From the NCBI GenBank assembly GCA_008932965.1, contig WBXG01000017.1:1-28682 (forward strand): a stretch of 28,682 nt of DNA. The letters run 5' to 3'. Position numbers and translations under genes: made by a program. The notes below the pieces were generated by a model. The model saw nothing but the letters and a program-made list of their open reading frames with translations, did not search any database and had not been told where the DNA came from. Positions 1-28,458 of this stretch are shown here, one piece after another (position 1 is the stretch's first letter; each line of letters starts with the position of its first letter). The DNA is from Verrucomicrobiota bacterium (GTDB lineage: Bacteria; Verrucomicrobiota; Verrucomicrobiia; Chthoniobacterales; UBA6821).

Positions 1-122
1 AGACTCACATTTTGATTTGGGCAGTATGTACACATACAGCCCTGCATCAAAATGCTCGCCTGCCTTACCCCATCAGCCTTCGCGGCCTCCTCGTCACGAT
101 CAGTATGAAATATCCGGGTTAA
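1..122 (+). mobile_element. Hairpin element copy A (type 1a), 5' end cut by the window edge. Lies in frame inside ispG.
   Basis: Nearly identical to 1053-1174 of copy B. Ends in CACGATCAGTATGAAATATCCGGGTTAA. Translated in the ispG frame as ...[25 protein letters not shown], then continues into IspG sequence. Confidence 0.9.
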
Positions 123-994
123 GTTGGAATCTAGTGGCGCCAGGATGGTCGTTTTTTAGCAGTGATCGGCGAGATTCTCAAAAAATAATGATCAATAATA
201 CCGAGGTTGGTGGTACTTCTCTGGTGCGGGTGGTGATACCGCGTCATTCCCATGAGGCAGTAGCTCCCAAGCTCGCTTTCATGGGAGAATATCAACCCGA
301 ATTCATTTTGGAGGATTTATCACTCATAGAAATGGATCCTCGTTCCGAGGAGGAGATAGCTTTATTGAGCCATGAAAAAGCACCTCGCCTGATTACTGTT
401 CGTGATGGGATTGAGATGAGCCCGATTGCTGCTTTTCGCCTTCTTGCAGCACGTATCCCATCTAGCTATCCCATTTTGCTTAAAGATACTCTCAAGCCGG
501 AAAGCCAGATAACAGAGTCAGAGTTGCATAGAAGAGAAGTTACAAAAAATCTACTTACTGCCTCAACAGTAATTGGGGCCCTTCTGTGTGATGGGATTGG
601 TGATGCTGTTCTCATTCGTGGCGAATCCTCTCCTGAAGCTTCTCTTCGGCTTGCCTATAATATTTTACAATCTGCAGGAGTGCGGATTTTTAAAACGGAT
701 TATGTAGCCTGTCCTTCCTGTGGGCGTACACTTTTTAATCTTCAGGAAACAACAGCACGTATTAAAGCTGCAACAGACCATCTTAAGGGAGTTCGTATTG
801 CTATTATGGGTTGTATTGTTAATGGTCCTGGAGAAATGGCGGATGCCGACTTTGGCTATGTGGGTGGAGCACCCGGAAAAGTGAATCTCTACGTTGGCAA
901 GCAAGCAGTCAAATTTAATATTCCTCAGGAAGAGGCTGTGGAGCAGCTTGTCACCTTGATTCAGGAGCATGGGAAATGGGTAGAAAGAGATTAA
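2..994 (+). CDS. ispG: 4-hydroxy-3-methylbut-2-enyl diphosphate synthase IspG (long form), 5'-truncated by the window edge. The frame runs through hairpin-element copy A (1-122).
   Basis: The C-terminal motifs [20 protein letters not shown] and GCIVNGPGE are typical of IspG/GcpE. The ~200 aa before them fit the extra insert domain of long-form IspG. The N-terminal TIM-barrel part is absent, and the frame stays open to position 2 through the repeat. The stop TAA at 992-994 lies inside the TTAA at the start of copy B. Confidence 0.85.
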
Positions 995-1174
995 CCCGGA
1001 TATTTCATACTGATCTACTACGGAAGCCGGGAACTCAGATGGATGCTGCGTTAGACTCACATTTTGATTTGGGCAGTATGTACACATACAGCCCTGTATC
1101 AAAATGCTCGCCTGCCTTACCCCATCAGCCTTCGCGGCCTCCTCGTCACGATCAGTATGAAACATCCGGGTTAA
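991..1174 (+). mobile_element. Hairpin element copy B (type 1a), full length 184 bp, starting on the ispG stop codon.
   Basis: 5' TTAACCCGGATATTTCATACTGATC and 3' GATCAGTATGAAACATCCGGGTTAA form ~25-nt terminal inverted repeats. The interior hairpin is CATTTTGAT...ATCAAAATG. TTAA is present at both ends. Confidence 0.92.
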
Positions 1175-1243
1175 CCCGCCTATTTCATACCGATTCTGCT
1201 GCGGCTTGCGAACACCTGATAGATACTGCGTCAGTCTCCAACT
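1171..1243 (+). repeat. Hairpin element copy C (type 2), 3'-truncated, abutting copy B through a shared TTAA.
   Basis: TTAACCCGCCTATTTCATACCGATTCTGCTGCGGCTTGCGAACACCTGATAGATACTGCGTCAGTCTC matches the first ~70 nt of copy G (8257-). Confidence 0.8.
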
Positions 1244-1265
1244 TTTTTTAGTCAGAGTTCGATTT

Positions 1266-1898
1266 CTATTTAGGAAAAAACTTTCTAATTTCCTGAAGCA
1301 TACGATGGATGTGGCGATAGCCTTTGACCTTAGAGAGAAGTAGGTAGCTATGCCACGGATCTCCCCATTCTATGATTTCAATGGTGACACGGCGTACCCC
1401 CCACTGGGACATGGCTGTCCGCGTTGGTTTGTAAAGATCGATAGTGTTTGTTCCAGCGAGTGCAAAACCATAATCATCGACAATAAAATTTTCTCCTGTT
1501 GCCTTAATGCGAAACCGAGTTCCAGCTGGCCAACGTGCCCAATCAGCAGCTGCACTGTTGAGCGCTCCATATTTTAAAGGTGTGCCAAGGGCGGAACAAG
1601 CTCCATAACGATGGTGGTCGCGTTCAGAATGAGTGTAGGCTGTTGTACGCACTTTTTGAACAGCAGTACGTGCAAGCGGTTTTTCATATGTTGGAAGTTG
1701 GTGGGCACAACTGCTGAGGAATAATACCGTTGCTACTGCAAGAGATGAAACACCTTGCTGTAGCCTTGTTGGACATTTTGTAATTGCAAATTCACTGTTG
1801 TGATCAATCTCTCTCTTCATAAGAAAGTCTATGTCTGCAAGCATTCCATCATGCTGAAATAACCAATCTGCAACGTGGGAGCAGAGAAGGCTCTGCAT
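1266..1898 (-). CDS. 3D-domain (MltA-like) lipoprotein. Maximal ORF shown; the likely start is the ATG at 1820.
   Basis: The C-terminal half (RTTAYTHSE...NFIVDDYGFALAGTNTIDLY) looks like a 3D domain. The lipobox-like LFLSSC is preceded by a hydrophobic stretch, which fits a start at MKREID (1820) better than 1898. Confidence 0.7.
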   Translation of the reverse strand: MQSLLCSHVADWLFQHDGMLADIDFLMKREIDHNSEFAITKCPTRLQQGVSSLAVATVLFLSSCAHQLPTYEKPLARTAVQKVRTTAYTHSERDHHRYGACSALGTPLKYGALNSAAADWARWPAGTRFRIKATGENFIVDDYGFALAGTNTIDLYKPTRTAMSQWGVRRVTIEIIEWGDPWHSYLLLSKVKGYRHIHRMLQEIRKFFPK

Positions 1899-1906
1899 TC
1901 ATGAAA

Positions 1907-2923
1907 TTATATCGATGAATTATTTGCTGCTACTTGGGCTACGGCACTTGCCACTGTTGTTGCTGCTGCCACAGCAGTAGCTTGTTCAGGAGTGAGTGAA
2001 AGCCCTGGAAGTAAATCTCCTTCGGTTGTTCCGACCCCTTGAATACGACGTTTTTCTTGCCTTTCTTGAGAAATGCGAACGACTTCACGAGCTAAGCCAC
2101 ATTTTTCCATAATACGAATTACATAGGCAGAGGGATCAATTTGCCACCATTTCATTCCGTGAAAAGCAGAGCGAGGAAAAGCATGGTGATTGTTATGCCA
2201 TCCTTCACCCATTGCTAGAATTCCGAAGATAAAATTATTGCGACTTACATCAGTTGTTTCAAAATCCCGGCCACCAAATGTGTGGCAGATAGAATTAACC
2301 GACCAAGTTACATGATGATTGAGAAAGACACGTACAAGTCCACCCCAGAAAAATCCTTGTAATGCTCCAACCTCGAAACCGTGAAGGCCACCACCATGAA
2401 GAGATTCAATCCAACCACACAGTAGGGTGGGTACGAGAAATCCAAGGGCAACCCAAACAAAAAAAGTTTTACTGATAAAAACAATCAGTGGATCTTTGAG
2501 AAGGGGCTTCGCATATTTTTCAATATTAGGCTGGAAATCATCTAGAATCCAACCGACATGAGCATGAAAAAAACTTTTGAGGGGACTATGAGGATCATCC
2601 TCCATATCCGAATTTGCGTGATGTTGAATATGAGTGGCTGCCCAGTTAAGAGCTGGCCCTTGAAGGGTCATGGAGCCTGTGATCAAGAAAAAAGCGCGAA
2701 CCCAGTCGGGTGCATGAAAACTTTTATGGGTTAGCATGCGATGGTAGCCGATGGTGATACCGAAGCCGCCTAGGATAAACATTCCAAGCATGACAAGCAA
2801 GGAGCTCATGTTAACCATTTGATTCCAGAGAAAGTAAATTCCAATCATCGTAGCAATAAGTGGAATCCAAACGACGAATAAAAGAATGGTTTTATTGAGA
2901 GAGGAGGTCTGTGGATGACTCAT
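1907..2923 (-). CDS. Acyl-CoA/acyl-lipid (delta-9 type) fatty acid desaturase.
   Basis: Three histidine boxes (HRMLTH, HIQHHANSD, HNNHH) and N-terminal transmembrane segments. Confidence 0.88.
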   Translation of the reverse strand: MSHPQTSSLNKTILLFVVWIPLIATMIGIYFLWNQMVNMSSLLVMLGMFILGGFGITIGYHRMLTHKSFHAPDWVRAFFLITGSMTLQGPALNWAATHIQHHANSDMEDDPHSPLKSFFHAHVGWILDDFQPNIEKYAKPLLKDPLIVFISKTFFVWVALGFLVPTLLCGWIESLHGGGLHGFEVGALQGFFWGGLVRVFLNHHVTWSVNSICHTFGGRDFETTDVSRNNFIFGILAMGEGWHNNHHAFPRSAFHGMKWWQIDPSAYVIRIMEKCGLAREVVRISQERQEKRRIQGVGTTEGDLLPGLSLTPEQATAVAAATTVASAVAQVAANNSSI

Positions 2924-2980
2924 GATCTTTATAAACTACATCAAAAGATAGGAAATGCAAGGGGAGGTAATGAATCTTTA

Positions 2981-3112
2981 TTAACCTGCATATTTCATAC
3001 CGATCACCTACGAAAGCCGGGAAGCAAGGGTGGATGCTGCGTTGAGCTCGAAGTCTTACCCCATCAGCCTTCGCAGCTCCCTCGTTACGATCAGTATGGA
3101 ATATCTGCTCTA
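2981..3112 (+). mobile_element. Hairpin element copy D (type 1b), with a ~52-bp internal deletion. Sits between the glycosyltransferase stop and the desaturase start.
   Basis: TTAACCTGCATATTTCATACCGATCACCTACGAAAGCCGGGAAG...CCCCATCAGCCTTCGCAGCTCCCTCGTTACGATCAGTATGGAATATCTGCTCTA. The central hairpin is missing relative to copy H. The terminal TA overlaps the stop codon (CTA on +) of the 3110-4210 gene. Confidence 0.85.
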
Positions 3113-4210
3113 GGATATTTTGTTCAAAATAAATGTTGCTATTTTTTGGGTTGCAGAAGAGGTAGCCAAAACTGATAAACACTCTTTCCAATATTTCCAT
3201 GTTGCTGCTTCCTGGGAAAAAACTTCTGCTACAGAAGCAGCAATAGTTTCAGGATAGTGGGCAGCTAAACGACCAATATTATGCCGTTCGATAAGTTCTA
3301 TGTTCCCCTCTTCTTGCCCAGGAACAATATGACTGATTAAAAGTGGACACTTCGCTGCCATAGCTTCATGAACAATGGCACCACCAGCTTTTCCAATATA
3401 GAGATGGTGAGAGGCAAGAAGTTCAGGGATGTTTTTTGTCCAACCTATGAGGCTTAATTGAACCCCATTGAAAATACCTGATTTTTCCAAACTTGCATGC
3501 ATTTCTCTCAAGCGGCCAGTGACGACGGTGATCTCAATATTAGGAATACTTTTCAAGGCCTCTAGGACTTCTAATGTATGTTGGGCTTTGGAAGAGGGGA
3601 GGTAGAGAATTTTCCAAGGAGGTTGTGTTATGATCGGAAGAGAAGGCAACATGGCAAACCGTGGAGCAACGGGGAATCCCAAAACATGAATTTTTTCTCT
3701 AAGAACACCATCTTTAGTTAAGACAGAGGCTGTTTCCTCATCAACAACAATAAAATCGTCACTACCGGCTCGATACCACGCTATATTAATAGCAGTCGAG
3801 TCGGTAATCATTGTGACGAAACGGACCTTGCTTGCTTTATTCCCCTCTTTTCGAAGCTCACGAATGAGAAAAGCATAAAGAGGATAAGTCGAAACAATGA
3901 TGTCAGGCTCGAGTTGATCAATGGTCTTTTGAAGGGCGCGCTTGAGTGGCCCCATCATAAAAAGTGTTCTTTCTAAGGTGCTAGGATGATTCAAAAAATT
4001 AAAGATAACACCCCAAATCATTGGGAATTTATTGATTGCAAGTCGGTATCCTGATTGAAGAGCTTTTGTTAACCAAGGAGTGCTTTGAAGGTAAATATCA
4101 ATGACCGTGACGGCTACTTCCGTACCCTCTTGTAATGCTTCACTAATATTATGGGCTGCTGTGTTATGACCATCACCGAACCCAGCCGTAAGAATAAGAA
4201 CTTTTTTCAT
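3110..4210 (-). CDS. MGDG synthase / UgtP-type (GT28 family) diacylglycerol glycosyltransferase.
   Basis: N-terminal MKKVLILTAGFGDGHNTAA and C-terminal GKAGGAIVHEAMAAKCPLL...PGQEEGN resemble the monogalactosyldiacylglycerol synthase family. Confidence 0.8.
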   Translation of the reverse strand: MKKVLILTAGFGDGHNTAAHNISEALQEGTEVAVTVIDIYLQSTPWLTKALQSGYRLAINKFPMIWGVIFNFLNHPSTLERTLFMMGPLKRALQKTIDQLEPDIIVSTYPLYAFLIRELRKEGNKASKVRFVTMITDSTAINIAWYRAGSDDFIVVDEETASVLTKDGVLREKIHVLGFPVAPRFAMLPSLPIITQPPWKILYLPSSKAQHTLEVLEALKSIPNIEITVVTGRLREMHASLEKSGIFNGVQLSLIGWTKNIPELLASHHLYIGKAGGAIVHEAMAAKCPLLISHIVPGQEEGNIELIERHNIGRLAAHYPETIAASVAEVFSQEAATWKYWKECLSVLATSSATQKIATFILNKIS

Positions 4211-4335
4211 AGAAGAGGCTATGCAACTTTAACCTAAAACCGATAAAGCCTGCATCAGGAATTGGAATTAAAAATAGTTGTTATGGAGATAGCTATTCTG
4301 CATGTTCCATGATATTGGCTACAACATAAATACTT

Positions 4336-4362
4336 ATCCGGATTAACCCGGATTTTCATCAG
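4336..4362 (+). repeat. Hairpin element end remnant (copy E): TIR-to-TIR junction-like ATCCGGATTAACCCGGATTTTCATC.
   Basis: Resembles the copy B/C junction (ATCCGGGTTAACCCGCCTATTTCATAC). It overlaps the last codons and the stop (4343-4345) of the CFA synthase gene. Confidence 0.5.
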
Positions 4363-5611
4363 AAGGAAGCATATAGATGGGAGACTTCAATGTGAGATTT
4401 GTAGGGCGTGAATAGAGCGCCTGTACAGTCGATTTCGAGCGTGTTGCAAATGCGGCCTCACAATAGCAGAGATAGTAAAACCATTTTCTTAAAAAAAGGG
4501 TGGAGCATCCTTGTTTTTGCATTTTAGGTAAGGAGCTGGTAAAGGCAGTGCGCCACAGGGCCATTGTTCGTGCTGCAGAAGGAGTGATATCCTCGCAGTC
4601 TAGCAGGTTGAGATTTCCAGTTTCATTGCAGGCTTCGGTGAGGCGCCTCAAGGAAGGAGTCAATGTTCTTGGAGTAATATATTTTTGAACAAAATCGACG
4701 TTATCACGCAGGAATGGATATTGGTTGTCAGGACAAAGAACTAACTGAAGTACAAGTAATCCTTGTGGTGCAAGTAGGCTTTCTATTTTAGCAAAGAATG
4801 GCTCTAAATCGGGATCATCGGCCAGATCCATCATTTCTATGCAAGCAATTTTGTCAAAGCGTCCTCCCAAATGCTGGTAGTTACAAAAGACAACCTCAAC
4901 GAGATTTGCAACGCCCGCTTTTTCGACATTAATATCAGTTTGCCGATATTGCTCCTCGGAGAGGGTTGTTGCTTGAATACGACATCCATACTTCTGAGCT
5001 GCATAAATTGCAAAGCCACCCCAGCTGCATCCAATATCCAATAAATAATCATGAGCAGTGAGCAGTAATTTTTGGCAAAGGCGTTCCCACTTAGCTTCCT
5101 GAGCTAGCGTGAGACTTTCCGTGGATGTCTTAAAGTAAGCAGCTGAGTAGGCCATGGAGGTACCTAGCCAATGTTGAAAAAAAGAGGTATGGACGTTGCT
5201 TTGGTCATAAAAAAGGGCCTCCTTTTTTTTCTTAGAGCAATGGCGTAAGAGGTGCTGGACTTGATTGGCAATGCCAAGAATATTATGTTTTTCAAGACCT
5301 TGTTCCCTCACTTTTTCTCCAGAGAGGAAGGAAGCATTTAAAAAAAACCATGCAATGACTCCAGTAAGATGATTCGTCTCCCATTCATTGTGGAGATAGG
5401 ATTCAGCAAGACCTATAGAACCGTACAGCACCCAACGACGGTAGAATGCTTCATTCTTAATTTTTATTTCTGCATGCAATTCTTTATCGAGCCCCCCAAA
5501 CATGCGAGATGATCCTCCTGGCATTGTGAGACGTAAGGTGCCTCGACGGCCTCGATGGAGGGTCTCTAAAACAAGATTACGATACAGTTTAGTGAATGCG
5601 GCTTGGAACAT
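4343..5611 (-). CDS. cfa: Cyclopropane-fatty-acyl-phospholipid synthase family methyltransferase.
   Basis: SAM-binding motif LLDIGCSWGGFAIYAAQKYG, with overall length and layout typical of CFA synthases. Confidence 0.85.
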   Translation of the reverse strand: MFQAAFTKLYRNLVLETLHRGRRGTLRLTMPGGSSRMFGGLDKELHAEIKIKNEAFYRRWVLYGSIGLAESYLHNEWETNHLTGVIAWFFLNASFLSGEKVREQGLEKHNILGIANQVQHLLRHCSKKKKEALFYDQSNVHTSFFQHWLGTSMAYSAAYFKTSTESLTLAQEAKWERLCQKLLLTAHDYLLDIGCSWGGFAIYAAQKYGCRIQATTLSEEQYRQTDINVEKAGVANLVEVVFCNYQHLGGRFDKIACIEMMDLADDPDLEPFFAKIESLLAPQGLLVLQLVLCPDNQYPFLRDNVDFVQKYITPRTLTPSLRRLTEACNETGNLNLLDCEDITPSAARTMALWRTAFTSSLPKMQKQGCSTLFLRKWFYYLCYCEAAFATRSKSTVQALYSRPTNLTLKSPIYMLPSDENPG

Positions 5612-5713
5612 GGTTTTTGCCGTGGGGGGATATAGCTGTGAGTTGAAAACTCCAAATTAACCACAAAAAAGAAGAAAGAACACAAAGAAAAATAAGGACA
5701 ATAGAGAATGACA

Positions 5714-5769
5714 AGCCCGGATATTTTATAGCAATCACTTGTGACGATCAGTATGAAATATTCTGACTA
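5714..5769 (+). repeat. Mini hairpin element (copy F, ~56 bp) that keeps both termini only.
   Basis: AAGCCCGGATATTTTATA...GTGACGATCAGTATGAAATATTCTGACTA in the divergent intergenic region between cfa and the GT4 gene. Confidence 0.6.
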
Positions 5770-5808
5770 GATTTCATTTTTCAATGACGATGAGAAAAAA
5801 ATATCATA

Positions 5809-6966
5809 GTGTGGCCCATGCATCCATACCTTCAACAACTACTTCGACCCAGGAAAAAATCCGGATTAGTTTCCCTGCCTCCTCATGGTGAATTTCGAGG
5901 TCATGCTTTAGGAAAAGTTCTTATTGCTTATATAACATGGCCTTTTAGGGAAGGGCACCATGCACCACGAGCTCGTGGGCACACCAATGCTTTTGAAGTC
6001 ATAGCAATGGCTAGCTCCTATCAAGAGCTCGGTTACCAGGTTGAAATTGTCGATTACGATGATAACACTTATATTCCCCCTTCAGATTGTTGTGTCGCTA
6101 TTGATCTGCATGGGCAACTGGAAAGATGGAATTCTTTCTTGCCTGAAACATGCCAGCGTATTCTTCATGCAACAGGGCCCCACTGGTTATTGTGGAATGA
6201 TTCAGAATTAAGGCGTCTCCTTGCAATCCAAGATCGCAAAGGGGTTGCCCTCTTTCCCCAGCGGCAGGTGGCTCCCTCTCATAGTGCCTCTCTTGCAGAC
6301 CAGATTGTTGTGCTAGGTAACAACTACACAATGCAGAGTTTTCAATTTGCAAATAAGCCAATCACTCGTGTTCCTCTCTCTTCTGCTTATGAATTTGATT
6401 ATCCTCAAGAGCGCGATCTTTCTGTTGCAAAGAAGCATTTTCTTTGGGTAGGAAGTTATGGAATGGTGCACAAGGGTCTTGATTTAGTACTCGATGCTTT
6501 TGCAAGGATGCCAGAGCTTTCACTCACCGTCTGTGGACGTCCAGAGAAGGAGAGAGATTTCTTTCGTCTTTATGAAAAAGAATTGCTCCATACCCCCAAT
6601 ATTACTTTTCATGGATGGATCGATATGGCTTCTGATGCCTTTAGCACAATCTCAAAGACCCATGCTGCTATTATCTATCCCTCGAGTGCCGAGGGAGGAG
6701 CTGGATCTGTCATTCATTCCATGCACGCGGGTATGGTTCCTATTTGTACGAGAGAAGCCTCGGTAGATCTTGGGGATTTTGGACTTCTCATTACAGAAGG
6801 TTCAGTAGAAGCGGTCATGGAGGCTGCTCTTGAGTTTTCTTCCTTATCAGATCAAGAGGTTTCAGAGCGTGCTGCTGCCTCCTATGCACATGCTCGTACG
6901 CACCATACACAAGAACTATTTCAAAAAAATTACCGAGACTTCGCAAAACATCTTCTTCATAGATAA
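5809..6966 (+). CDS. Glycosyltransferase family 4 (group 1). GTG start at 5809; alternative ATG at 5818.
   Basis: The C-terminal half (KGLDLVLDAF...YPSSAEGGAGSVIHSMHAGMVPI) has a GT-B/GT4-type layout. Confidence 0.8.
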   Translation: MWPMHPYLQQLLRPRKKSGLVSLPPHGEFRGHALGKVLIAYITWPFREGHHAPRARGHTNAFEVIAMASSYQELGYQVEIVDYDDNTYIPPSDCCVAIDLHGQLERWNSFLPETCQRILHATGPHWLLWNDSELRRLLAIQDRKGVALFPQRQVAPSHSASLADQIVVLGNNYTMQSFQFANKPITRVPLSSAYEFDYPQERDLSVAKKHFLWVGSYGMVHKGLDLVLDAFARMPELSLTVCGRPEKERDFFRLYEKELLHTPNITFHGWIDMASDAFSTISKTHAAIIYPSSAEGGAGSVIHSMHAGMVPICTREASVDLGDFGLLITEGSVEAVMEAALEFSSLSDQEVSERAAASYAHARTHHTQELFQKNYRDFAKHLLHR

Positions 6967-7048
6967 ATGAGGTTTTCTAAGTCCCTATCCCAATAGAGAT
7001 GATCTAGGGTATCTTACTAAATGGCATTCACCCCTGTTCTTCTCAATA

Positions 7049-7963
7049 ATGGAACCTATGGACTCTATTAGCATTATTATCCCAGCCTATAATGCAGCTA
7101 CGACTTTAAAAAAAACACTCGAGTCATGTCTTTCCCAAACAACAGCCCCTCTTGAAATTATTCTAGTTAATGATGGGAGTAGTGATGCGACAGCTTCGGT
7201 TGCAGATTTATTTAAAAATGTGATTCGCTATTTTCATTTGGAAAATGGGGGGGTGTCTCGTGCTAGAAATTATGGGGCCTCGCAGGCAAAGGGCGATTGG
7301 TTGCTCTTTCTTGATGCAGATGATCGATTGCTTTCACAGGCGCTGGAGAAATTACGAGAAGCAGCATTAAAGCAAAAGGTAGGGGTTGCCTATGGCATGG
7401 TTTTGGAACAACGTGAACCTCCAGAACAAGCCCGTCTCAATGGATTTAATTATGCGGCTGGTCAGCCACCCGCAGGATCACAACGCATTTTTTGGAGGAA
7501 TGCTATCATTACTCCTGGCTCAGCTATCGTGAGAAAGAGTCTTCACGAAAAATGTGGCGGCTTTGTAACTGGGTATGAACCGATGGAGGATCGCGATTAT
7601 TGGATCAAGTGTGGAATGCTAGAACCGATCGCTTTTTGTGAAACGGTGGTGCTTGATAAACTATGGCAACCTGCTTCCCATGGTTCCCAACACAGTAAAA
7701 GAATTTATCGGGGGCAGGTGGCACAGCGTGCACTCAAAAACTGGGCTCAGGTAAGAAATATTCCTGCCGACTGGATGCCGCTTGATCGGGAGATTATCAA
7801 ATCAGCACTCGATGAGGCTGTTTGGAGGCGCTCGTACACTATTTTAAGGCCATTGCTTACCGAGGCTCAGGCTCACGGTGTATGGCATTGGAGAGCTTTT
7901 TTGCTCTCGATTCTATTCCCTAGAAAAAATCCGCAATGGATGATGGGGGGCATGGGGAAGTAG
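7049..7963 (+). CDS. Glycosyltransferase family 2.
   Basis: ISIIIPAYNAATTL, ILVNDGSSDAT, RARNYGA and LLFLDADD are classic GT2 motifs. Confidence 0.88.
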   Translation: MEPMDSISIIIPAYNAATTLKKTLESCLSQTTAPLEIILVNDGSSDATASVADLFKNVIRYFHLENGGVSRARNYGASQAKGDWLLFLDADDRLLSQALEKLREAALKQKVGVAYGMVLEQREPPEQARLNGFNYAAGQPPAGSQRIFWRNAIITPGSAIVRKSLHEKCGGFVTGYEPMEDRDYWIKCGMLEPIAFCETVVLDKLWQPASHGSQHSKRIYRGQVAQRALKNWAQVRNIPADWMPLDREIIKSALDEAVWRRSYTILRPLLTEAQAHGVWHWRAFLLSILFPRKNPQWMMGGMGK

Positions 7964-8243
7964 GGGGCATATCTTGTTTGCTTTTTTTCTGTAATTTTTT
8001 GGAATGTCGTAAAATCACATTAAAAAGATGTTCAATGAAGAGAGGATCAAGGTTGTAGCTTTTTGCGAGGGAGGCATGTTTGTTTTTCAATTCTTCTTCT
8101 CGTGCTGGATCATGAATGTTCTGTTTCTCTTGAAGTTTGAGAAATCCAATGATGGAAGAGAGATGATTGCGTCGGGCGAGTTGTTCTATAATGAATGTAT
8201 CGATCTGATCGACCTCGGCTCGGAGCTCTTGGAGTGTTTTCAT
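7920..8243 (-). CDS. Chorismate mutase (AroQ class).
   Basis: LQELRAEVDQIDTFIIEQLARR...DPAREEEL... matches the AroQ-type helical chorismate mutase pattern. It lies downstream of tyrA in the aro operon. Confidence 0.85.
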   Translation of the reverse strand: MKTLQELRAEVDQIDTFIIEQLARRNHLSSIIGFLKLQEKQNIHDPAREEELKNKHASLAKSYNLDPLFIEHLFNVILRHSKKLQKKSKQDMPPTSPCPPSSIADFF

Positions 8244-8256
8244 AAAGATAGCCTGA

Positions 8257-8440
8257 TTAACCCGGATATTTCATACTGATTCTGCTGCGGCTTGCGAACA
8301 CCCGATGGATACTGCGTCAGTCTCGAATTGCTCCTCGGGCAGTATGAAACATACAGCCGTCGTCGCAATCCATCACCTTCCTTGTCTGCATCAGCCTTCG
8401 CGGCCTCCTCGTCACGATCAGTATGAAACATCCGGGTTAA
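8257..8440 (+). mobile_element. Hairpin element copy G (type 2), full length 184 bp, in the tyrA-chorismate mutase intercistronic spacer.
   Basis: TTAACCCGGATATTTCATACTGATTCTGCTGCGGCTTGCGAACACCCGATGG...CATCAGCCTTCGCGGCCTCCTCGTCACGATCAGTATGAAACATCCGGGTTAA. It abuts the tyrA stop (8441-8443) and ends 13 nt from the chorismate mutase start codon (8241-8243). Confidence 0.92.
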
Positions 8441-9160
8441 CTAGGTTAAAGTATGGTGCAGTATCGAAAGCTCTTTCAAAAATTTTTCTCGAACAGAGTG
8501 GGTGTATGGATTGTAGCGGTGCATATCTCCAAAAAGCTCTTCACTGTCTGCTGTAACACTGCGAACCATTTTTTGTAGAAGTTCAAAACTAGGTGTTGAA
8601 AGGATTCCTGGTGGAGTAGTCAGCATCGGGGCTCTTCCAATAAAATGGACTAGGGCCTGCATACTGGCACTTTGCATATCATGCTCTTCTGGAGTAAGAG
8701 AGATGATTTCTAATCCCATATGTTGAAAAATCTCGATCATCTTATGAGCTCTTTCCTCTTGTGGGCTAGTACAAAGCACTATTTTGTGACCACGTGTGCC
8801 TTCTGATTTTAGTATAGAATTAGGACCAAAAAGGGGGTGTATTGCCATGATCGGTTGTTTCTGTGGAAAGAGTTCACTCATGATTTGCATGGGAAATACT
8901 TTTACAGAGCAGGTATCGACAAGAAGAGTGGAAGGGGAAATAATTTTAGCTACGTGTTTACAGCACTCTTGAAATGAAGAGATAGGAACCGCTAAAAGAA
9001 GAACCTCAGTATCTCTTAGCTCCTCTAAGGGAACTAAGCTTACACCCTTGATGAGGCTCGTCTTGAGAATAGCGTCATGGGCCATCACTTTACCATAGGG
9101 TAACAGGAGCTCTGACCAACATTGACCCAAACGTCCAAAACCTATAATTCCAAATCGCAT
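8441..9160 (-). CDS. tyrA: Prephenate/arogenate dehydrogenase.
   Basis: N-terminal Rossmann motif MRFGIIGFGRLGQ, prephenate dehydrogenase-like length, and aro operon context. Confidence 0.82.
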   Translation of the reverse strand: MRFGIIGFGRLGQCWSELLLPYGKVMAHDAILKTSLIKGVSLVPLEELRDTEVLLLAVPISSFQECCKHVAKIISPSTLLVDTCSVKVFPMQIMSELFPQKQPIMAIHPLFGPNSILKSEGTRGHKIVLCTSPQEERAHKMIEIFQHMGLEIISLTPEEHDMQSASMQALVHFIGRAPMLTTPPGILSTPSFELLQKMVRSVTADSEELFGDMHRYNPYTHSVREKFLKELSILHHTLT

Positions 9161-9219
9161 TTTATTTGGGGTGCTATATTTCTATGAATCACTTTTATCT
9201 TAGATTGTTTTTTAATGTA

Positions 9220-10311
9220 CTACTGATTCTGAGCTTTATGGAGCAGGTAATGATCCATCAAAACCAGTGCGGCCATGGCATCGACGATAGGAACTGCACG
9301 TGGCAGGACGCAAGGGTCGTGACGACCTTGAACTGAGATACTGATTTCTTCTTGAGCTACATTGAGTGTCTGTTGCTCCTTGGCAATCGTTGAGACAGGT
9401 TTAAAGGCAACACGAAAAAGGATATCCTCTCCTGTGGAAATGCCTCCTAAGATTCCTCCCGCATGATTGGTTAAGCAGCTCATTTTTTCATTTCGTAAAA
9501 TAAAAGCATCGTTGTGCTCACTTCCAAGTAAGGTTGTCCCTTCAAATCCGGATCCGATTTCAAATCCTTTCACAGCATTAATCCCAAGCATCGCTTTTCC
9601 TAAGTCAGCTGAGAGTTTGTTAAAGACAGGAGCTCCAAGTCCTACTGGAACATGACGCAGGACTCCTTGAATCACCCCACCAACGGAGTCTCCTGTCTGT
9701 TGTACTGATTCAATCAATTCCATCATGGAGGGAGCCATTAAAGGATCAGGGCAGCGCAAAGGGTTGCTTTCAATGGTCTCTGCAGAGACGCTTCGAGGAT
9801 CTATGGTCGTACGTAGTCTCGCTACTTGCTCGACATAGCTTAGAATTTCAATATTGAAATGCTGTTTCAAATATTTTTTGGCAATGGCTCCTGCAGCTAC
9901 ACGGGCCCATGTCTCTCGAGCACTTGCACGACCGCTTCCTCTGAAATCACGACGCCCATATTTTTGCTGGTAGGTGAAATCTGCATGAGAAGGTCGATAG
10001 ACATTTTTGATGGCTTCGTAATCTCCTGGACGACTATCTTCATTATAAGCAAGCAGCAAAATAGGGGTTCCCAATGTATGCCCCTCAAAGACTCCAGAGA
10101 GAATGTGGACCTGATCTCGTTCCTGGCGAGGTGTTGTCAGTGCACTTTGTCCTGGTCTTCTACGATCGCATTCGTGCTGGATCTCCTCAGGCGTGATAGC
10201 CAAACCGGGAGGGCATCCATCGATGATCACTGCCACAGCACCTCCATGTGATTCACCACAGGTAGTAATTTTAAAAAGGTGTCCGAATGTGTTCATTTTT
10301 TTATAATTCAA
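9220..10311 (-). CDS. aroC: Chorismate synthase (alternative start at 10296, MNTFG).
   Basis: NTFGHLFKITTCGESHGG, RPGQSA, RPSHAD and GRHDPCV are AroC signature regions. Confidence 0.93.
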   Translation of the reverse strand: MNYKKMNTFGHLFKITTCGESHGGAVAVIIDGCPPGLAITPEEIQHECDRRRPGQSALTTPRQERDQVHILSGVFEGHTLGTPILLLAYNEDSRPGDYEAIKNVYRPSHADFTYQQKYGRRDFRGSGRASARETWARVAAGAIAKKYLKQHFNIEILSYVEQVARLRTTIDPRSVSAETIESNPLRCPDPLMAPSMMELIESVQQTGDSVGGVIQGVLRHVPVGLGAPVFNKLSADLGKAMLGINAVKGFEIGSGFEGTTLLGSEHNDAFILRNEKMSCLTNHAGGILGGISTGEDILFRVAFKPVSTIAKEQQTLNVAQEEISISVQGRHDPCVLPRAVPIVDAMAALVLMDHYLLHKAQNQ

Positions 10312-10320
10312 AAGGGGGTA

Positions 10321-16689: not shown

Positions 16690-16727
16690 CTTCCACAAGC
16701 CATAATGGATGGAGTATGAAATATCCT
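16690..16727 (-). repeat. Hairpin element remnant P (type 3, 5' end, reverse orientation).
   Basis: TTCCACAAGCCATAATGGATGGAGTATGAAATATCC parallels TTCCACAAGCCGTAATAGATTTAGTGTGAAATATCTGGG of copy M. It supplies the upstream ATG (16709) of the maximal ispE ORF. Confidence 0.55.
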
Positions 16728-16759
16728 TTCAAGGAGACTCCACTCCTTATTTTTTCATT

Positions 16760-17617: not shown

Positions 17618-17799
17618 CCCGCATATTTCACACCGATCTACTACGGAAGCCGGGAAGTCAGATGGATGCTGCGTTAGACTCACATTTTGATTTGAGCAGT
17701 ATATACACATACAGCCCTGCATCAAAATGCTCGCCTGCCTTGTACTAATAAGCTTTGCACGGCGCCTCATGACACTTCAGTATGAAACATCCGGGTTAA
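17614..17799 (+). mobile_element. Hairpin element copy K (type 1a, diverged 3' module), 186 bp, between the convergent ispE and exonuclease genes.
   Basis: TTAACCCGCATATTTCACACCGATCTACTACGGAAGCCGGGAAGTCAGATGGATGCTGCGTTAGACTCACATTTTGATTTGAGCAG...CTTCAGTATGAAACATCCGGGTTAA. The left TTAA holds the ispE stop and the right TTAA holds the exonuclease stop on the other strand. Confidence 0.9.
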
Positions 17800-18504: not shown

Positions 18505-18688
18505 GTAACCCGGATATTTCATCCCGATCTACTGTAGAAAACGGGAAGTCAGATGGATGCTGCGTTGATCTCGAAGTCTTCCTCGGGCAGTGTGTATACA
18601 CACTGCCGTCGTCAGACTTCATCACTCGCCTCGCCCCATTAGTCTTCGCGGTCTCCTCGTCACGATCAGTATAAAATATCTGGGTTAA
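18505..18688 (+). mobile_element. Hairpin element copy L (type 1b), 184 bp, between the DAHP synthase stop and the exonuclease start.
   Basis: GTAACCCGGATATTTCATCCCGATCTACTGTAGAAAACGGGAAGTCAGATGGATGCTGCGTTGATCTCGAAGTCTTCCTCGGGCAGTGTGTATACACACTGCCGTCG...CACGATCAGTATAAAATATCTGGGTTAA. Confidence 0.9.
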
Positions 18689-20356: not shown

Positions 20357-20460
20357 TTAACGCGCATATTTCATACTGCCCAATCACAATTCGAGACCAA
20401 CGCAGTAATGAGGAGCTTTCCACAAGCCGTAATAGATTTAGTGTGAAATATCTGGGCTAG
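20357..20460 (-). mobile_element. Hairpin element copy M (type 3), reverse orientation, 104 bp with an 80-bp internal deletion.
   Basis: Its reverse complement, CTAGCCCAGATATTTCACACTAAATCTATTACGGCTTGTGGAAAGCTCCTCATTACTGCGTTGGTCTCGAATTGTGATTGGGCAGTATGAAATATGCGCGTTAA, follows J3 up to GGGCAGTA and then jumps to the 3' TIR. Its end encodes the last 7 codons and the stop of the 20438-21283 gene. Confidence 0.85.
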
Positions 20461-21283
20461 TTTCTTGATGCTTTTTCTTTTGAAGTAGAACCCACAACCA
20501 AGCTCCACCAAAGTTCTCATCACGCTCTGCACGAATTAATTTTTCAAATCGGTGGAGTAATTGAATGACAAGATCCTCCGTGTGATCCCAGGAAACCGCT
20601 TCAAAAGGACCTCCAGCTCCCTGTTCCATATTTGTTCCCATATCGTAGAGTAAAAAACCTTCAGGTTTCAGAACACGTGCATGCTCTCTCATCATTGCTT
20701 CCAGATCGAAAGCATGATCCACGCAATTGGTGTAGAGCATATCAATCGAATTCTCTTTCTCCTGAAGCTTCATAAAATCACCTGCACGAACAATACGGTT
20801 GTCAGGACCAGGATTGAGATCGATTCCGTAAGCATTAAAAAACCCTAGATCGTGTAATACTTCCACTTCTGTTCCCTGGCGGGCACCTGAGCAGAGAATC
20901 ACCGCATCTCGTGAAAGGAGCTGTGTCAAATGTTTGAAGCGGCTGTAAAATTTCAAACGATACTCGCAAATATCCCAATTACTAAATCCTCCTTTCATCT
21001 TGAGCATTTCATCAAGCTTCTGCTGCTGATGTGTCACATATTCGTCGTAGCTGGAATAGTCCCTTTTGAGAAGATCACCCTCTTTTTCCGATTTCCAACC
21101 TCCTTCACCATGGTGCTTGAGACGGACCTCATGCTTATCACGCTCATGTTGATAATTCGCATCCTGCATCTTCCGAAGTTTGCGAATGTATCCATACCCT
21201 CCTGGAATAACGAGATGCAGGGCTGTTTTGAACCAGAACCGTGGATAAAATGAGGGAAGAAGCGTGTGTCGAAGGTAGGCCAT
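20438..21283 (-). CDS. Class I SAM-dependent methyltransferase whose C-terminus is encoded by element copy M.
   Basis: Rossmann-like ILCSGARQGTEVEVL...GIDLNP and LYTNCVDHAFD...LKPEGFLL. The terminal SPDISH-stop is a translation of AGCCCAGATATTTCACACTAA (element TIR). Confidence 0.75.
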   Translation of the reverse strand: MAYLRHTLLPSFYPRFWFKTALHLVIPGGYGYIRKLRKMQDANYQHERDKHEVRLKHHGEGGWKSEKEGDLLKRDYSSYDEYVTHQQQKLDEMLKMKGGFSNWDICEYRLKFYSRFKHLTQLLSRDAVILCSGARQGTEVEVLHDLGFFNAYGIDLNPGPDNRIVRAGDFMKLQEKENSIDMLYTNCVDHAFDLEAMMREHARVLKPEGFLLYDMGTNMEQGAGGPFEAVSWDHTEDLVIQLLHRFEKLIRAERDENFGGAWLWVLLQKKKHQETSPDISH

Positions 21284-21386
21284 AAAATCAGCCTGCAGGC
21301 TACAACCTTCAGGCTTCAGGCTGAAGAAAAAAATATTTTAGGAGAAAATAAATGTTTAAAATCTAATATTGCTCAGGACTGAAGTA

Positions 21387-21441
21387 CCCATCATCCGTTA
21401 TTCATTACCCATGATACTTTAGTATGAAATATCTGGGTGAA
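21387..21441 (+). repeat. Degenerate 3'-end remnant of a hairpin element (copy N).
   Basis: CCCATCATCCGTTATTCATTACCCATGATACTTTAGTATGAAATATCTGGGTGAA, compared with the consensus CCCCATCAGCCTTCGCGGCCTCCTCGTCACGATCAGTATGAAATATCCGGGTTAA. It ends 3 nt from the stop of the 21445-22335 gene. Confidence 0.55.
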
Positions 21442-27148: not shown

Positions 27149-27856
27149 ATGAAATTGTCGTACTACCTTCTTTTTTTGGGATTCATGAGCGTTAGTTGTA
27201 ATGGAATCTGCAGCATTGAAAAAACCAATTCTATCTCACGCTCAGCAATAGAGGAGATGACGCAGTCAACCGCTCCACAAGAAAACAGTCCTTTCTTTAT
27301 TGAACGTGAGGAGGCACGTCAGGCTGCAGCAGAGGCTGCTACCAATTCGATTTATAGAAGTTCTCTGCTCGTCCCTCGGCATTCTATTCAAGAGGAGATG
27401 AAAAAATGGGCGAGTCAGTGTCTTAATGTAATCAAGATTATTCCTAATAAAACGATCCTTCCTTCATCACAAATCATTGTAGAACCAATTTTCTTCTCAT
27501 TAAGTGAGACTCCTCAATTACATGTTTCTTTTAAAGTAACCAATAACACTAAGAAGGTTCTCTTTCTTGATTTTTCAACGAATCAACGCCTTGAAATTCT
27601 TCTCAAAGAACAAAGTGGAATGGTGATCACTCGGTGGTCGGAAGATCGATCCTTTGATTCGATCGCTAGCGTTGTGATCATCAATCCCAAAGAAAGTGTC
27701 GTTTATACGGAAACAATTCCAACCCTCGGTATGAAAAAGGGGGTCCCCTACAACATTGAGGTCTCACTCGTGGGGCATCCCGAGTATACGCATACTCAAT
27801 CCATCACTTCTCAGGATAGTTCTGAGGATTTCTCTAATGCATCGTTGCATGAATAG
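27149..27856 (+). CDS. Putative lipoprotein of unknown function.
   Basis: Signal peptide with a lipobox-like FMSVSC. The rest is unrecognised (a possible BsuPI-like beta-sandwich is only a guess). Confidence 0.55.
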   Translation: MKLSYYLLFLGFMSVSCNGICSIEKTNSISRSAIEEMTQSTAPQENSPFFIEREEARQAAAEAATNSIYRSSLLVPRHSIQEEMKKWASQCLNVIKIIPNKTILPSSQIIVEPIFFSLSETPQLHVSFKVTNNTKKVLFLDFSTNQRLEILLKEQSGMVITRWSEDRSFDSIASVVIINPKESVVYTETIPTLGMKKGVPYNIEVSLVGHPEYTHTQSITSQDSSEDFSNASLHE

Positions 27857-27947
27857 AAAGGGTATGAGATGCATTTTTTAAATAAAAATATTGCCAAAAG
27901 ATGCACGAATCTCTACTTCTTGACTCCAATTAATCCAATTAACCACC

Positions 27948-28193
27948 ATGTCTGATACATCCATTGAAGAAAAAGTCCGTAATATTATCGTCGAACAACT
28001 CGGCGTCACTGCTGAACAAGTTACTCTAAACGCCTCGTTCATTGAAGATCTAGGAGCTGATTCACTCGACACTGTTGAGCTTGTCATGGCTTTCGAGGAA
28101 GAGTTCGGTGTTGAAGTTCCTGATGAAGATGCCGAGAAGCTTCAAAAAGTTGGTGATGTTGTGAAGTATATTGAAGAGCACAGTAAGGCATAA
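27948..28193 (+). CDS. acpP: Acyl carrier protein.
   Basis: 81 aa with the [20 protein letters not shown] phosphopantetheine attachment motif. Confidence 0.95.
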
Positions 28194-28219
28194 TTTTTAC
28201 TTCATAAATAATTTCAAAG

Positions 28220-28254
28220 AATGCTGCTTCTCAATCGGGGCAGCATTTTTTTTG
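28220..28254 (+). terminator. Rho-independent terminator downstream of acpP.
   Basis: Stem AATGCTGC / GCAGCATT with a 12-nt loop, followed by a run of eight T. Confidence 0.8.
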
Positions 28255-28273
28255 TATTTTTATATAGAGCCGC

Positions 28274-28458
28274 TTAGGCATGATATTTCACACTCAATCT
28301 ATTACGGCTTGTGAAAAACTCTAGGGCTACTGTATTGGTCTTAAATGGTGATCCGGAAGGTAGGACTTTACTCCTATATCGTCAGGCTTCTTCACACACC
28401 TTGCCCCATGAGCCTTCGCGGCCTCCTCATCACGATGGGTAGGAAATATTTTGTTTAA
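28274..28458 (+). mobile_element. Hairpin element copy O (type 3, diverged), 185 bp, downstream of the acpP terminator.
   Basis: TTAGGCATGATATTTCACACTCAATCTATTACGGCTTGTGAAAAACTC...CCCCATGAGCCTTCGCGGCCTCCTCATCACGATGGGTAGGAAATATTTTGTTTAA. Confidence 0.85.

Follow-up and report, generated by a model that had tools for sequence, protein, structure and literature searches.

An undescribed MITE-like family in Verrucomicrobia that behaves like Rickettsia palindromic elements

Repeat copies and their neighbouring genes in the window

The window, meaning the whole stretch of 28,682 nucleotides analysed here, contains numerous copies of one repeat family. Using an nhmmer profile built from the eight full copies listed in the original prediction, we found eight full copies, one copy cut by the edge and seven fragments, which in total occupy about 2.17 kb, a share of 7.6%. 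The nine full-length copies of the prediction (one of them edge-cut) were exactly those recovered, all on the + strand, and its hand count of ~2.2 kb (~8%) agrees with the measured share, whereas its "about nine" truncated or deleted copies come down to seven. A search with the 21-nt terminal inverted repeat (TIR), allowing up to 3 mismatches, gave 16 matches in the window compared with 0.00 expected from shuffled sequences.

The edge-cut copy (1-122, match from position 2, +) represents the right two-thirds of the element (profile positions 64-184, 119 bits) and is translated within the ispG frame (ORF 17-994), with the GcpE domain lying downstream in the same ORF. This ORF ends at a TAA (992-994) inside the left duplication of a full copy at 991-1174 (+, 176 bp plus TTAA/TTAA, 191 bits), which is followed in tandem by a left-arm-only fragment (1171-1249, +, profile positions 2-79, repeat family D7), one TTAA being common to both. 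An internally deleted copy (2981-3113, +, profile positions 1-77 and 126-179) carries in its right flank CTAG (3110-3113) the stop codon of an MGDG-synthase-like gene (ORF 3110-4210, -). The mini remnant at 5714-5769 (+) consists of two nearly abutting TIRs with weak nhmmer matches at both ends (repeat families D6, D8 and D10). Between convergent genes lies the full copy at 8257-8440 (+, TTAA/TTAA, B-type left arm, 162 bits), directly adjoined by the stop codon (8441-8443) of the prephenate dehydrogenase gene.

Two full copies (10515-10698 and 11526-11709, both +) are located inside aroB, the gene for 3-dehydroquinate synthase (10321-11799, -; Pfam DHQ_synthase and DHQS_C), the former in the C-terminal domain and the latter in the N-terminal region, and antisense translation turns each into 60 extra residues. 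These two in-frame copies and the one in the ispG frame had gone unmentioned in the original prediction. Further along follow a rearranged or internally deleted copy of 112 bp (13032-13143, +, profile positions 1-65 plus an inverted match), an intergenic full copy upstream of the pur genes (13191-13374, +, TTAA/CTAA, C-type left arm, 157 bits) and a right-end remnant of 35 bp (16691-16725, +, repeat family D11). The listed start of the ispE ORF (16709, MEYEIS...) falls within this remnant. The full copy at 17614-17799 (+, TTAA at both ends, 155 bits) separates two convergent genes; the ispE stop (17615-17617, ORF 16709-17617, +) lies in one TTAA duplication and the stop of an exonuclease gene (17796-17798, ORF 17796-18395, -) in the other. 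An intergenic full copy (18505-18688, +, GTAA/TTAA, 183 bits) precedes a left-half fragment (20368-20459, -, profile positions 2-95, 56 bits), whose TIR forms the final codons and stop (...SPDISH, stop) of a methyltransferase gene (ORF 20438-21283, -). The remaining two are a short end fragment (21383-21438, -, profile positions 4-57, E = 0.003, repeat family D8) and a full but diverged copy downstream of acpP (28274-28458, +, TTAG/TTAA, 138 bits).

Element structure, distribution and target site

The element proper measures 176 bp from CCCGG to CCGGG and is bounded by perfect TIRs of 21-22 bp with CCCGGATATTTCATACTGATC at both ends; the original prediction gave ~184 bp for the element and ~25 nt for the TIRs. 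Across 103 copies the TIR positions are 90-100% conserved. Exactly 176 bp are found in 77 of 148 elements, and for 95 of these 148 the net addition is a multiple of three. As the interior consists of two diverged arms that are mutually inverted, the element forms a hairpin over its full length, both as DNA (-63.4 kcal/mol, z = -12.9) and as RNA (-79.9 kcal/mol, z = -9.9), and the imperfect palindrome noticed earlier is thus supported by both folding energies. The consensus structure of the 103 copies keeps the TIR stem alone (-9.65 kcal/mol, covariation part -1.2), as the interior arms have been swapped between copies and their pairing is often broken. The same 20-nt TIR with flanks of the YTAR type also encloses further small elements, whose interiors are unrelated; the contigs carrying them have 39-53% GC, apart from two with 61-62%.

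Looking for further copies outside the window, we found hundreds in several genomes. At least 92 TIR-bearing stretches are present in five Verrucomicrobia/Chthoniobacterales MAGs; 614 kb of MAG loci yielded 251 profile matches, 125 of them full length, and 676 kb of contigs from lake and other metagenomes yielded 221 more. The family thus occurs in at least five Chthoniobacterales/Verrucomicrobia MAGs and in many lake metagenomes, its hosts being known only as bins from lake, soil and other metagenomes. In related genomes some orthologous sites proved to be filled and others empty. Locus L061 has two tandem copies, absent from the window, within its ortholog of ORF 1266-1898. The sister-species locus L212 shares most sites with the window, has no copy at the site of 2981-3113, and possesses a full copy (reverse complement 16428-16612) where the window keeps the 35 bp of 16691-16725. 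Among five samples of one population the copy positions were identical and no within-species insertion polymorphism was found. The majority of copies are old. They have become fixed in the species, are largely common to the sister species and decay by internal deletion. Given the lack of polymorphism within the species, the family may be extinct as a mobile element.

Just outside CCCGG...CCGGG lies a target-site duplication of 4 bp, YTAR. The flanking 4-mers, nearly all of them YTAR, are identical at both ends in 90 of 145 elements, compared with 41.7 expected if the ends were independent; the pairs TTAA/TTAA, CTAG/CTAG and CTAA/CTAA occur 54, 22 and 11 times. TTAA is the commonest target (65/145), with CTAG, CTAA and TTAG also freely used, giving the preference TTAA > CTAG > CTAA/TTAG. 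The TA core proposed for the junctions (mostly TTAA) holds, but a duplication of the 2-bp TA does not, since the outermost and the innermost base of the 4-mer change in step at the two ends. Correia elements duplicate TA. A TA-only duplication of this Correia or IS630 type was rejected for our family, as it does not predict the co-varying pairs CTAG/CTAG (22) and CTAA/CTAA (11).

The duplication also bears on the idea that the copies are extragenic palindromes of the REP/BIME kind and owe their spread to a RAYT, a single-strand transposase of the IS200/IS605 type, instead of a DDE enzyme. Every copy being a long hairpin would suit such an origin, and so would the orientation bias relative to GC skew in some genomes (95:44 in the MAG loci, 9:0 in the window), which is also seen in single-strand transposons. 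This bias, however, was not replicated in the metagenome loci (25:22) and is weak in the Kiruna MAG (34:23). Single-strand (Y1) transposition leaves no target duplication, whereas a variable one of 4 bp is clear here; in addition the ends are true inverted repeats of 21-22 bp, the unit is 176 bp and not 20-40 bp, and no conserved RAYT-like ORF accompanies the copies in the 614 kb of MAG loci or, by Pfam, among the window ORFs. We therefore regard a RAYT origin as highly improbable.

With 176 bp, perfect TIRs, a target duplication, a sole open frame of 60 residues and no transposase coding, hundreds of copies and empty sites, the copies are very probably non-autonomous DNA transposons (MITEs), in line with the first reading of the window.

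Read-through in aroB and termination at stop codons

The addition of the 176-bp element and the 4-bp duplication gives a net gain of 180 bp, i.e. 60 codons, per insertion. Because of two such in-frame copies the AroB of the window has 492 aa, whereas relatives have about 365 aa (about 118 homologues without inserts range from 363 to 375 aa). The 365-aa ortholog of the Kiruna MAG (L023) has neither window insertion and aligns with clean 180-bp gaps, while aroB of the sister species (L212) contains a third in-frame element piece of 132 bp. Within the species the doubly inserted gene is fixed, and of eight substitutions five affect the 120 residues that were inserted. When the window is compared with L212, dN/dS is 0.225 in the host codons and 0.79 in the inserts taken together (1.05 and 0.46 singly), suggesting that the inserted peptides evolve almost neutrally. 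In an AlphaFold2 model of AroB based on 78 homologues the pLDDT exceeds 90 over most of the host fold and drops below 50 at residues 58-86 and 392-425, both within the inserts. The model thus predicts an intact AroB fold from which the inserts protrude with little order.

The finding of the same 60 residues in unrelated proteins, including AroB, PriA, IspG and a 1022-aa protein, in a frame that has been open since before the split of the two species, might also be explained by a genuine protein module that many proteins have recruited, with the DNA repeat being secondary. Most copies, however, are intergenic or lie on stop codons, and the same DNA read either way encodes two unrelated peptides. 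A recruited module is also hard to reconcile with an insert dN/dS of about 0.8-1.0 against 0.23 for host codons, with close AroB orthologues that work without inserts, with low AlphaFold confidence for half of each insert and with the lack of any Pfam match inside the AroB inserts. Pfam likewise found no match in the 60-residue peptide of the element's sole open frame, and we give this explanation hardly any credence compared with the insertion of a MITE.

The consensus is free of stops in exactly one frame in both orientations (YTA RCC CGG ATA TTT CAT ACT GAT ... GAT CAG TAT GAA ATA TCC GGG YTA). In this frame 0 the interior lacks stops in 76-96% of copies in either orientation, non-genic copies included, compared with 2-56% in the other two forward frames and none in the two remaining reverse ones. 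As the element is near-palindromic its orientations do not count as independent, and the arm types are also related by descent; the openness of frame 0 could be partly accidental. About 26 of 145 elements (~18%) are read through within long ORFs, 25 of them exactly 176 bp long, a count that derives from stop-to-stop ORFs rather than curated genes and includes at least one spurious case (995-1170 of the window, antisense to ispG). For 33 ORFs with a length of 100 codons or more the stop coincides exactly with the TAR of the flanking duplication, compared with 0-2 at other nearby offsets, and seven more end at a TGA within the TIR.

What an insertion leads to depends on the reading frame of the target YTAR. 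A target in frame 1 results in a tolerated 60-residue insert, L[TA]RIFHTD...DQYEISGL. In frame 2 the TAR is itself a stop codon, so that the element hits the stop of the gene and the duplication restores it. In frame 3 the TGA inside the TIR ends the protein after about seven codons, which can be survived only near the 3' end of a gene. Afterwards selection would need only to keep the insert open and, judging from dN/dS, the inserted peptide would drift almost neutrally.

Several copies are found exactly between convergent genes (8257-8440, 17614-17799) and the hairpins are very stable, which could also mean that the copies persist mainly because their RNA or DNA structure acts as a signal, for instance as a terminator, a stabiliser of mRNA or a hairpin with a regulatory role, and that they are domesticated instead of selfish. 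Effects of this kind have been reported for Correia and ERIC elements (PMC10969869). Against this, the TIR stem is the only consensus structure kept across the 103 copies, and the Rfam search recommended for the family returned no match, so it is no described Rfam family. A simpler reason for finding copies at the ends of genes is that TAR stop codons are themselves targets of the YTAR type. Retention as signals thus has a slim chance of being the main reason for the persistence of the copies, and we prefer selfish insertion at YTAR.

Relation to known elements and the mobilising enzyme

Judged by Rfam and the literature searched, in which the TIR string was not found, the repeat is a new, undescribed MITE family with Rickettsia palindromic element (RPE)-like behaviour. 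Of the two systems it had been likened to, the Correia elements of Neisseria are also MITEs with TIRs and a hairpin-forming interior, present in hundreds of copies (100-160 bp, TIRs about 26 bp); they include size variants due to internal deletion and have no parent IS that has been identified. Their TIR sequences are unrelated, they are essentially intergenic, and the comparison, like that with IS630-type elements, breaks down at the duplication, which is 4 bp YTAR here and not TA. The RPEs are the closer parallel as our element is built for in-frame read-through. As far as the summary of Ogata et al. 2000 in PMC10969869 describes them, both are imperfect palindromes over their whole length of about 100-200 bp, both are numerous and lack a known transposase, a large proportion of either lies in frame inside unrelated housekeeping genes with an inserted peptide that is apparently tolerated and not functional, and both include ancient insertions common to several species. 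Our family, too, often enters unrelated protein-coding genes in frame while the fold of the host protein is retained. It probably has no sequence relationship to the RPEs, and it differs in its host (Verrucomicrobia/Chthoniobacterales, not Rickettsiales) and in its crisp TIRs of 21-22 bp, demonstrable 4-bp YTAR duplication, fixed net length of 60 codons and strong association with stop codons. The family works like an RPE, a likeness of behaviour and not a demonstrated identity. In the enterobacterial MITEs of ERIC/YPAL type, intragenic copies (Delihas 2007, as cited in PMC10969869) are, as far as that account goes, exceptional, whereas about one fifth of our copies are read through and about one fifth more lie on a stop codon.

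The absence of a transposase ORF from the window noted in the original prediction agrees with Pfam, which found none among 20 ORFs, and with the annotation of the syntenic locus. The suggested search for an IS with matching ends had no success in the window, the 614 kb of MAG loci or the 676 kb of metagenome loci. No multicopy ORF of at least 150 aa occurs in the MAG loci. Where TIRs enclose an interval of 1-4 kb, it contains host genes only. As MAG assemblies break at long repeats, a multicopy IS could be missing from the contigs examined, in which (about 1.3 Mb) no parent transposase was found. A missing parent does not exclude membership among the MITEs since the accepted Correia and RPE families are also parentless.

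From the TIRs and the duplication we infer that a DDE-type transposase acting in trans would move the element, and that its 4-bp staggered cuts at YTAR would produce the duplication. IS5 ends begin GGAAGG..., whereas those of our family begin CCCGG. IS5 nonetheless resembles it in a 4-bp duplication with the consensus 5'-YTAR-3' (PMC5009759), and from this target an IS5-group-like enzyme is our best guess. Neither an IS5-type transposase nor a matching full-length IS was found in the contigs examined. The hallmarks of piggyBac are a TTAA duplication and 5'-CCC...GGG-3' termini. The termini of our family would fit, and TTAA is its commonest duplication though just 65 of 145, with CTAG, CTAA and TTAG also freely in use; the resemblance is a tentative one. 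An IS1380/piggyBac-like enzyme would be the alternative, IS1380 transposases being distant bacterial relatives of piggyBac (PMC10140906); none was found in the contigs examined. The IS701 family makes a duplication of exactly 4 bp (PMC2266710), the length observed here, and at locus L188 a TIR match adjoins an IS701-family transposase. This parentage was rejected, as six IS copies in different flanks put the IS end 32-50 bp inside the TIR match and the other copies have no TIR.

The sharing of TIR and YTAR by unrelated small elements could point to a widespread, unrecognised transposase. It is a speculative possibility, to which we attach a small likelihood, that the family is shaped for life inside genes and served by such an enzyme, perhaps a bacterial piggyBac/IS1380-like one with seamless excision. 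The 60-codon net length and the one frame open both ways even in intergenic copies would fit, as would a target that, depending on its frame, reads as Leu, reads as a stop or soon leads to a TGA. If true, in-frame insertions would be reversible.

Until now Rickettsia has supplied most of the known cases of selfish DNA lying in frame within proteins, and the elements there have unclear ends, show no duplication and are moved by no enzyme known so far. The present family is an independent case in another phylum with readable insertion chemistry, and the 4-bp YTAR duplication and fixed 60-codon payload give a mechanistic explanation for placement in frame or on stop codons. Copies of the element inflate gene calls in Verrucomicrobia MAGs and distort them; dozens of "hypothetical proteins" are element read-throughs, some start codons are wrongly placed, and repeats give rise to chimeric assemblies. 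With many ortholog pairs with and without inserts, it might now be possible to study how proteins absorb 60-residue insertions.

Copies, ends and interior of the element

In order to count the copies we used the 21-nt element end CCCGGATATTTCATACTGATC, which matches the window 16 times with at most three mismatches and shuffled sequence not at all, and a search profile derived from the eight full copies at 991–1174, 8257–8440, 10515–10698, 11526–11709, 13191–13374, 17614–17799, 18505–18688 and 28274–28458. The profile found all eight and the copy cut by the window edge (2–122, forward strand) at 119–191 bits, so that the nine large copies of the original prediction were all recovered, whereas only seven of its about nine further fragments were. 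Profile search and repeat families place these at 1171–1249, 2981–3113, 5714–5769, 13032–13143 and 16691–16725 (35 bp) on the forward strand and at 20368–20459 and 21383–21438 on the reverse strand. Copies and fragments make up ~2.17 kb or 7.6% of the window, close to the ~2.2 kb or ~8% estimated before. All nine large copies lie on the forward strand, though the adjoining genes are on both, and each full copy forms one long hairpin (DNA −63.4 kcal/mol, z = −12.9; RNA −79.9 kcal/mol, z = −9.9). The pair bracketing the 3' part of ispG (1–122 and 1053–1174) is 98% identical compared with 62–87% for other window copy pairs, suggesting that gene conversion or a recent duplication may have taken place locally.

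When the ends of 113 full copies were lined up, the 4 bp outside the conserved CCCGG...CCGGG proved to be variable among copies and matching across the two ends of one copy. The flanking 4-mers are identical in 90 of 145 elements (41.7 expected with independent ends), the pairs being TTAA/TTAA (54), CTAG/CTAG (22), CTAA/CTAA (11) and TTAG/TTAG (3). Because pairs of the CTAA/CTAA type are impossible from a TA duplication with complementary termini, the duplication is 4 bp long with the consensus YTAR; the co-variation of the 4-mers thus rules out a TA-only duplication of the IS630/Correia type, and the TA formerly seen at both junctions is only part of the duplicated target. The element proper measures exactly 176 bp in 77 of 148 elements, and one insertion adds 180 bp. 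TTAA, the commonest of several targets here, together with CCC...GGG termini is reminiscent of piggyBac, of which both are typical. Bacterial relatives of piggyBac form the IS1380 family (PMC10140906), the target of IS5 is YTAR (PMC5009759), and IS701-family elements generate duplications of exactly 4 bp (PMC2266710).

The interior is modular: the 103 aligned copies combine at least three types of left arm with at least four of right arm in various ways (compare window copies 991–1174, 8257–8440 and 13191–13374), and the copy L078:3456–3639 from a MAG locus carries a 'right' arm on each side. This mosaic suggests that copies may have exchanged arms by recombination or gene conversion. RNAalifold retained the TIR (terminal inverted repeat) stem alone as consensus structure of the 103 copies, which rules out a conserved whole-length RNA or DNA structure; the full-length hairpin is a matter of two inverted related arms and not a fold maintained by covariation. 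Longer classes of ~270 bp and 350–390 bp between the TIR ends also exist (L010:3111–3385, L013:6174–6445, L043:123–379 and about 35 others). The ~270-bp class, the sole one inspected as a possible larger relative, turned out to be ordinary elements with an internal insert of 80–95 bp, and one of its members is read through at the PriA N-terminus. Most copies carry GATC at the inner edge of each TIR (e.g., window 1012–1015 and 1150–1153); in IS10 and IS50, transposition is linked to replication through Dam sites at the termini.

Read-through and host genes

The element is built for read-through. Its 180 bp correspond to 60 codons, and reading the sequence across the element end shows that the frame YTA-RCC-CGG-ATA-TTT-CAT-ACT-GAT is open, that the frame Y-TAR gives a stop codon and that the frame YT-ARC-CCG-GAT-ATT-TCA-TAC-TGA stops after seven codons. 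As the ends are inverted repeats, the outcomes are the same on the opposite strand. The interior of the open frame is free of stops in 76–96% of the 176-bp copies in both orientations, and also in 78–82% of the copies not called intragenic. None of the copies is without stops in the two remaining reverse frames, compared with 2–56% in the two remaining forward frames, and these other frames of 176-bp copies have 0.6–3.8 stops on average. Read-through within a long ORF applies to about 26 of 145 elements, of which 25 have a length of exactly 176 bp. Furthermore, the TAR of the flanking duplication is the exact end point of 33 ORFs with 100 codons or more, compared with 0–2 ORF ends at other nearby offsets, and the TGA within the TIR terminates seven more.

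All three frame outcomes are present in the window. The aroB gene (10321–11799, reverse strand) contains two copies, each encoding 60 extra residues (TRIFHT[DN]R[DN]...GDQ.EI.GL), and the ispG frame continues through the copy at 1–122. The stop codons of ispG (992–994) and ispE (17615–17617) and, on the reverse strand, those of the exonuclease gene (17796–17798) and the MGDG-synthase-like gene (3110–3112) lie within flanking duplications, and the methyltransferase gene (20438–21283, reverse strand) takes its last codons and its stop (...SPDISH, stop) from a TIR at 20438–20459. The element distorts gene calling in these genomes: the listed ispE ORF starts within an element remnant (MEYEIS..., 16709–16730) and has 302 aa compared with 284 aa in the sister species. 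The AroB cluster member P0143 (456 aa) tracks the window AroB to the second inserted element and continues as unrelated sequence, probably through chimeric assembly at the repeat.

The 20 large window ORFs scanned with Pfam are ordinary housekeeping genes and include no transposase, as had been predicted for the window. They comprise ispG, a fatty-acid desaturase, MGDG-synthase-like and other glycosyltransferases, a CMAS methyltransferase, chorismate mutase, prephenate dehydrogenase, aroB, ispE, an RNase T-like exonuclease, DAHP synthase, an MBOAT protein and lnt, while aroC, an M42 peptidase, purQ/L and acpP were identified outside the scan through syntenic annotation or reading of translations. 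PurL (KAB2644250.1) and AroB (KAB2644245.1) are deposited from the window under a 'Verrucomicrobia bacterium' MAG. The chorismate mutase ORF (7920–8243, reverse strand; CM_2, 107 aa) and a glycosyltransferase ORF (7049–7963, forward strand) are convergent with a 3' overlap of 44 bp, and the same overlap is annotated in the sister species (L212 13613–13936 and 13893–14798).

The inserts in AroB are passengers. Between the window and L212, the syntenic locus of the sister species, the host codons of aroB show a dN/dS of 0.225 compared with 1.05 and 0.46 for the two inserts (together 0.79), and five of the eight AroB substitutions within the species fall into the 120 inserted residues. The protein between the inserts aligns with solved dehydroquinate synthases (3okf, 1dqs; E about 1e-59). 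In an AlphaFold2 model based on 78 homologs (mean pLDDT 82, >90 over most host blocks) each insert was predicted as a helix that protrudes and then passes into a stretch of low confidence (pLDDT <50 at residues 58–86 and 392–425).

Age, orientation and distribution

A comparison of orthologous sites between the window and Tobar2m-G38, the Kiruna MAG and L212 showed filled and empty ones, in line with the mobility originally proposed. Tobar2m-G38 carries two tandem in-frame copies in the ortholog of window ORF 1266–1898, which has none in the window, and the Kiruna MAG has an AroB of 365 aa with neither of the window insertions, leaving clean 180-bp gaps. The best 120 AroB homologs have 349–412 aa (nearly all 362–393) except for two, namely that of the window species, which has 492 aa, and that of one sister species with 536 aa. 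L212 is 82–90% identical to and syntenic with window 992–17799, with which it has in common the two aroB insertions as well as the copies near 1.0, 8.3, 13.0–13.4 and 17.6 kb; therefore, most insertions are older than the species split. L212 also shows a full copy at the site of the 35-bp window remnant, no copy at window 2981–3113, and a third insert in its aroB, an in-frame remnant of 132 bp (44 codons) with an internal deletion. Copies thus decay through internal deletion.

Recent activity is not supported, as copy positions are identical in five samples of one population and no insertion polymorphism was seen within a species. Loci L093–L097 come from a StratFreshDB-type lake series. The doubly inserted aroB allele was found again in 15 database members. 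Indels of ~50–60 bp split an aminotransferase gene between two of these samples (L093 versus L094, about 1935–2004) and between L096 and L093, and in L094 a transporter gene (ACR_tran) is also split; the indels are located away from element positions and may be either real or assembly errors.

In the MAG loci, with the window excluded, the window-type orientation is found on the locally G-rich strand at 95:44 (p = 2e-5), and orientation shows no link to the coding strand (76:63); the window itself gives 9:0. Among the MAGs the ratio is 34:23 for Kiruna and 55:21 for the others, and metagenome loci give 25:22. A replication-strand bias, although significant in the MAG loci, is thus weak in the Kiruna MAG and not replicated in the metagenome loci, and we regard it as suggestive only. 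The top strand of the element is C-rich (GC skew −0.12 in the alignment of 103 copies) and the bottom strand forms the stabler hairpin in 97 of 103 copies (DNA mean −43.5 versus −37.7 kcal/mol), so that the favoured orientation would put the weaker hairpin on the strand expected as lagging-strand template. Such a placement would be expected under selection against deletions caused by hairpins, and the hairpin strand asymmetry could be the basis of the orientation effect.

Outside the window, where further copies had been expected of a mobile family, hundreds of profile matches were found. An exact-match scan with one genome per species gave at least 92 TIR-bearing stretches, and those among the matches listed are all in Verrucomicrobia MAGs ('Spartobacteria' Kiruna_bin-02438, Chthoniobacterales Tobar2m-G38, Deming_bin.170, SMAG_U8253 and a Lake Pavin Verrucomicrobiia bin). 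The window belongs to none of these MAGs, its best match among them being Tobar2m-G38 at 83–84% nucleotide identity. The 614 kb of MAG loci contain 251 non-overlapping profile matches (125 full length), and another 221 came from 98 loci of a metagenome scan. Two element peptides gave 132 matches in a database of 5.8 billion proteins, almost all of them short 'hypothetical proteins' of Verrucomicrobia/Chthoniobacterales MAGs, which are gene calls on the element itself. The original prediction had not recognised a named family, and Rfam returned 0 matches to the element at gathering thresholds, IMG/VR 0 matches, and blastn against 72,556 plasmids only chance matches (E ≥6); a literature search for the TIR string and for MITEs of Verrucomicrobia/Chthoniobacterales gave nothing relevant and no description of the element.

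The TIR group, the mobilising enzyme and classification

In 18 of the 98 metagenome loci the TIR is shared without any similarity to the interior of the element, and about 12 of these 18 have YTAR as the four bases before the TIR. Several of the loci (among them L109, L115, L128, L133, L136 and L182) hold different small elements, 159–245 bp long, that are bounded by the same 20-nt TIR, have unrelated interiors and lie on contigs with 39–53% GC, and two loci with the TIR only (L157 and L188) are at 61–62% GC. Since the same TIR surrounds unrelated interiors, it marks a wider group of elements, a TIR-defined superfamily, which implies a conserved, widespread transposase.

A parent IS would have YTAR-flanked ends that read CCCGGATATTTCA. 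No multicopy ORF of at least 150 aa is present in the 614 kb of MAG loci, and TIR pairs 1–4 kb apart (L045, L070, L092, L043, L124, L162, L107 and L121), as candidates for a full-length IS, enclose host genes (e.g., PriA, PheT, phosphoglucomutase and transporters) and no transposases. As MAG assemblies usually break at long multicopy repeats, the absence of a parent IS from the contigs is weak evidence. In the metagenome locus L188 an exact TIR match adjoins an IS701-family transposase (NF049999, 169.8 bits; PF13546) with >3000 close homologs, but comparison of six copies in different flanks placed the end of this IS 32–50 bp inside the TIR match, and the other IS copies are without the TIR, so that IS701 was rejected as parent. 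This unrelated IS of ~2.0 kb (L188:187–2189, equal to L188rc 2376–4378; L206–L211) consists of a 111-aa upstream ORF and a 451–457-aa transposase, and its homologs show 74–83% identity and are found in metagenomes, mostly on contigs of about 2 kb.

By every testable criterion except a known parent the element is a MITE. Thus, the MITE-like reading of the original prediction stands, but the element is not of the Correia/IS630 type, which duplicates TA and not a 4-bp YTAR. It is also not of the REP/RAYT kind, and it does not belong to the families of Rickettsia palindromic elements (RPE). It does behave like these in its in-frame insertion, with a far more legible insertion chemistry and in another host phylum. 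Interest in the element would grow were its parent enzyme of a novel kind, or were its in-frame insertion an adaptation of the element itself.
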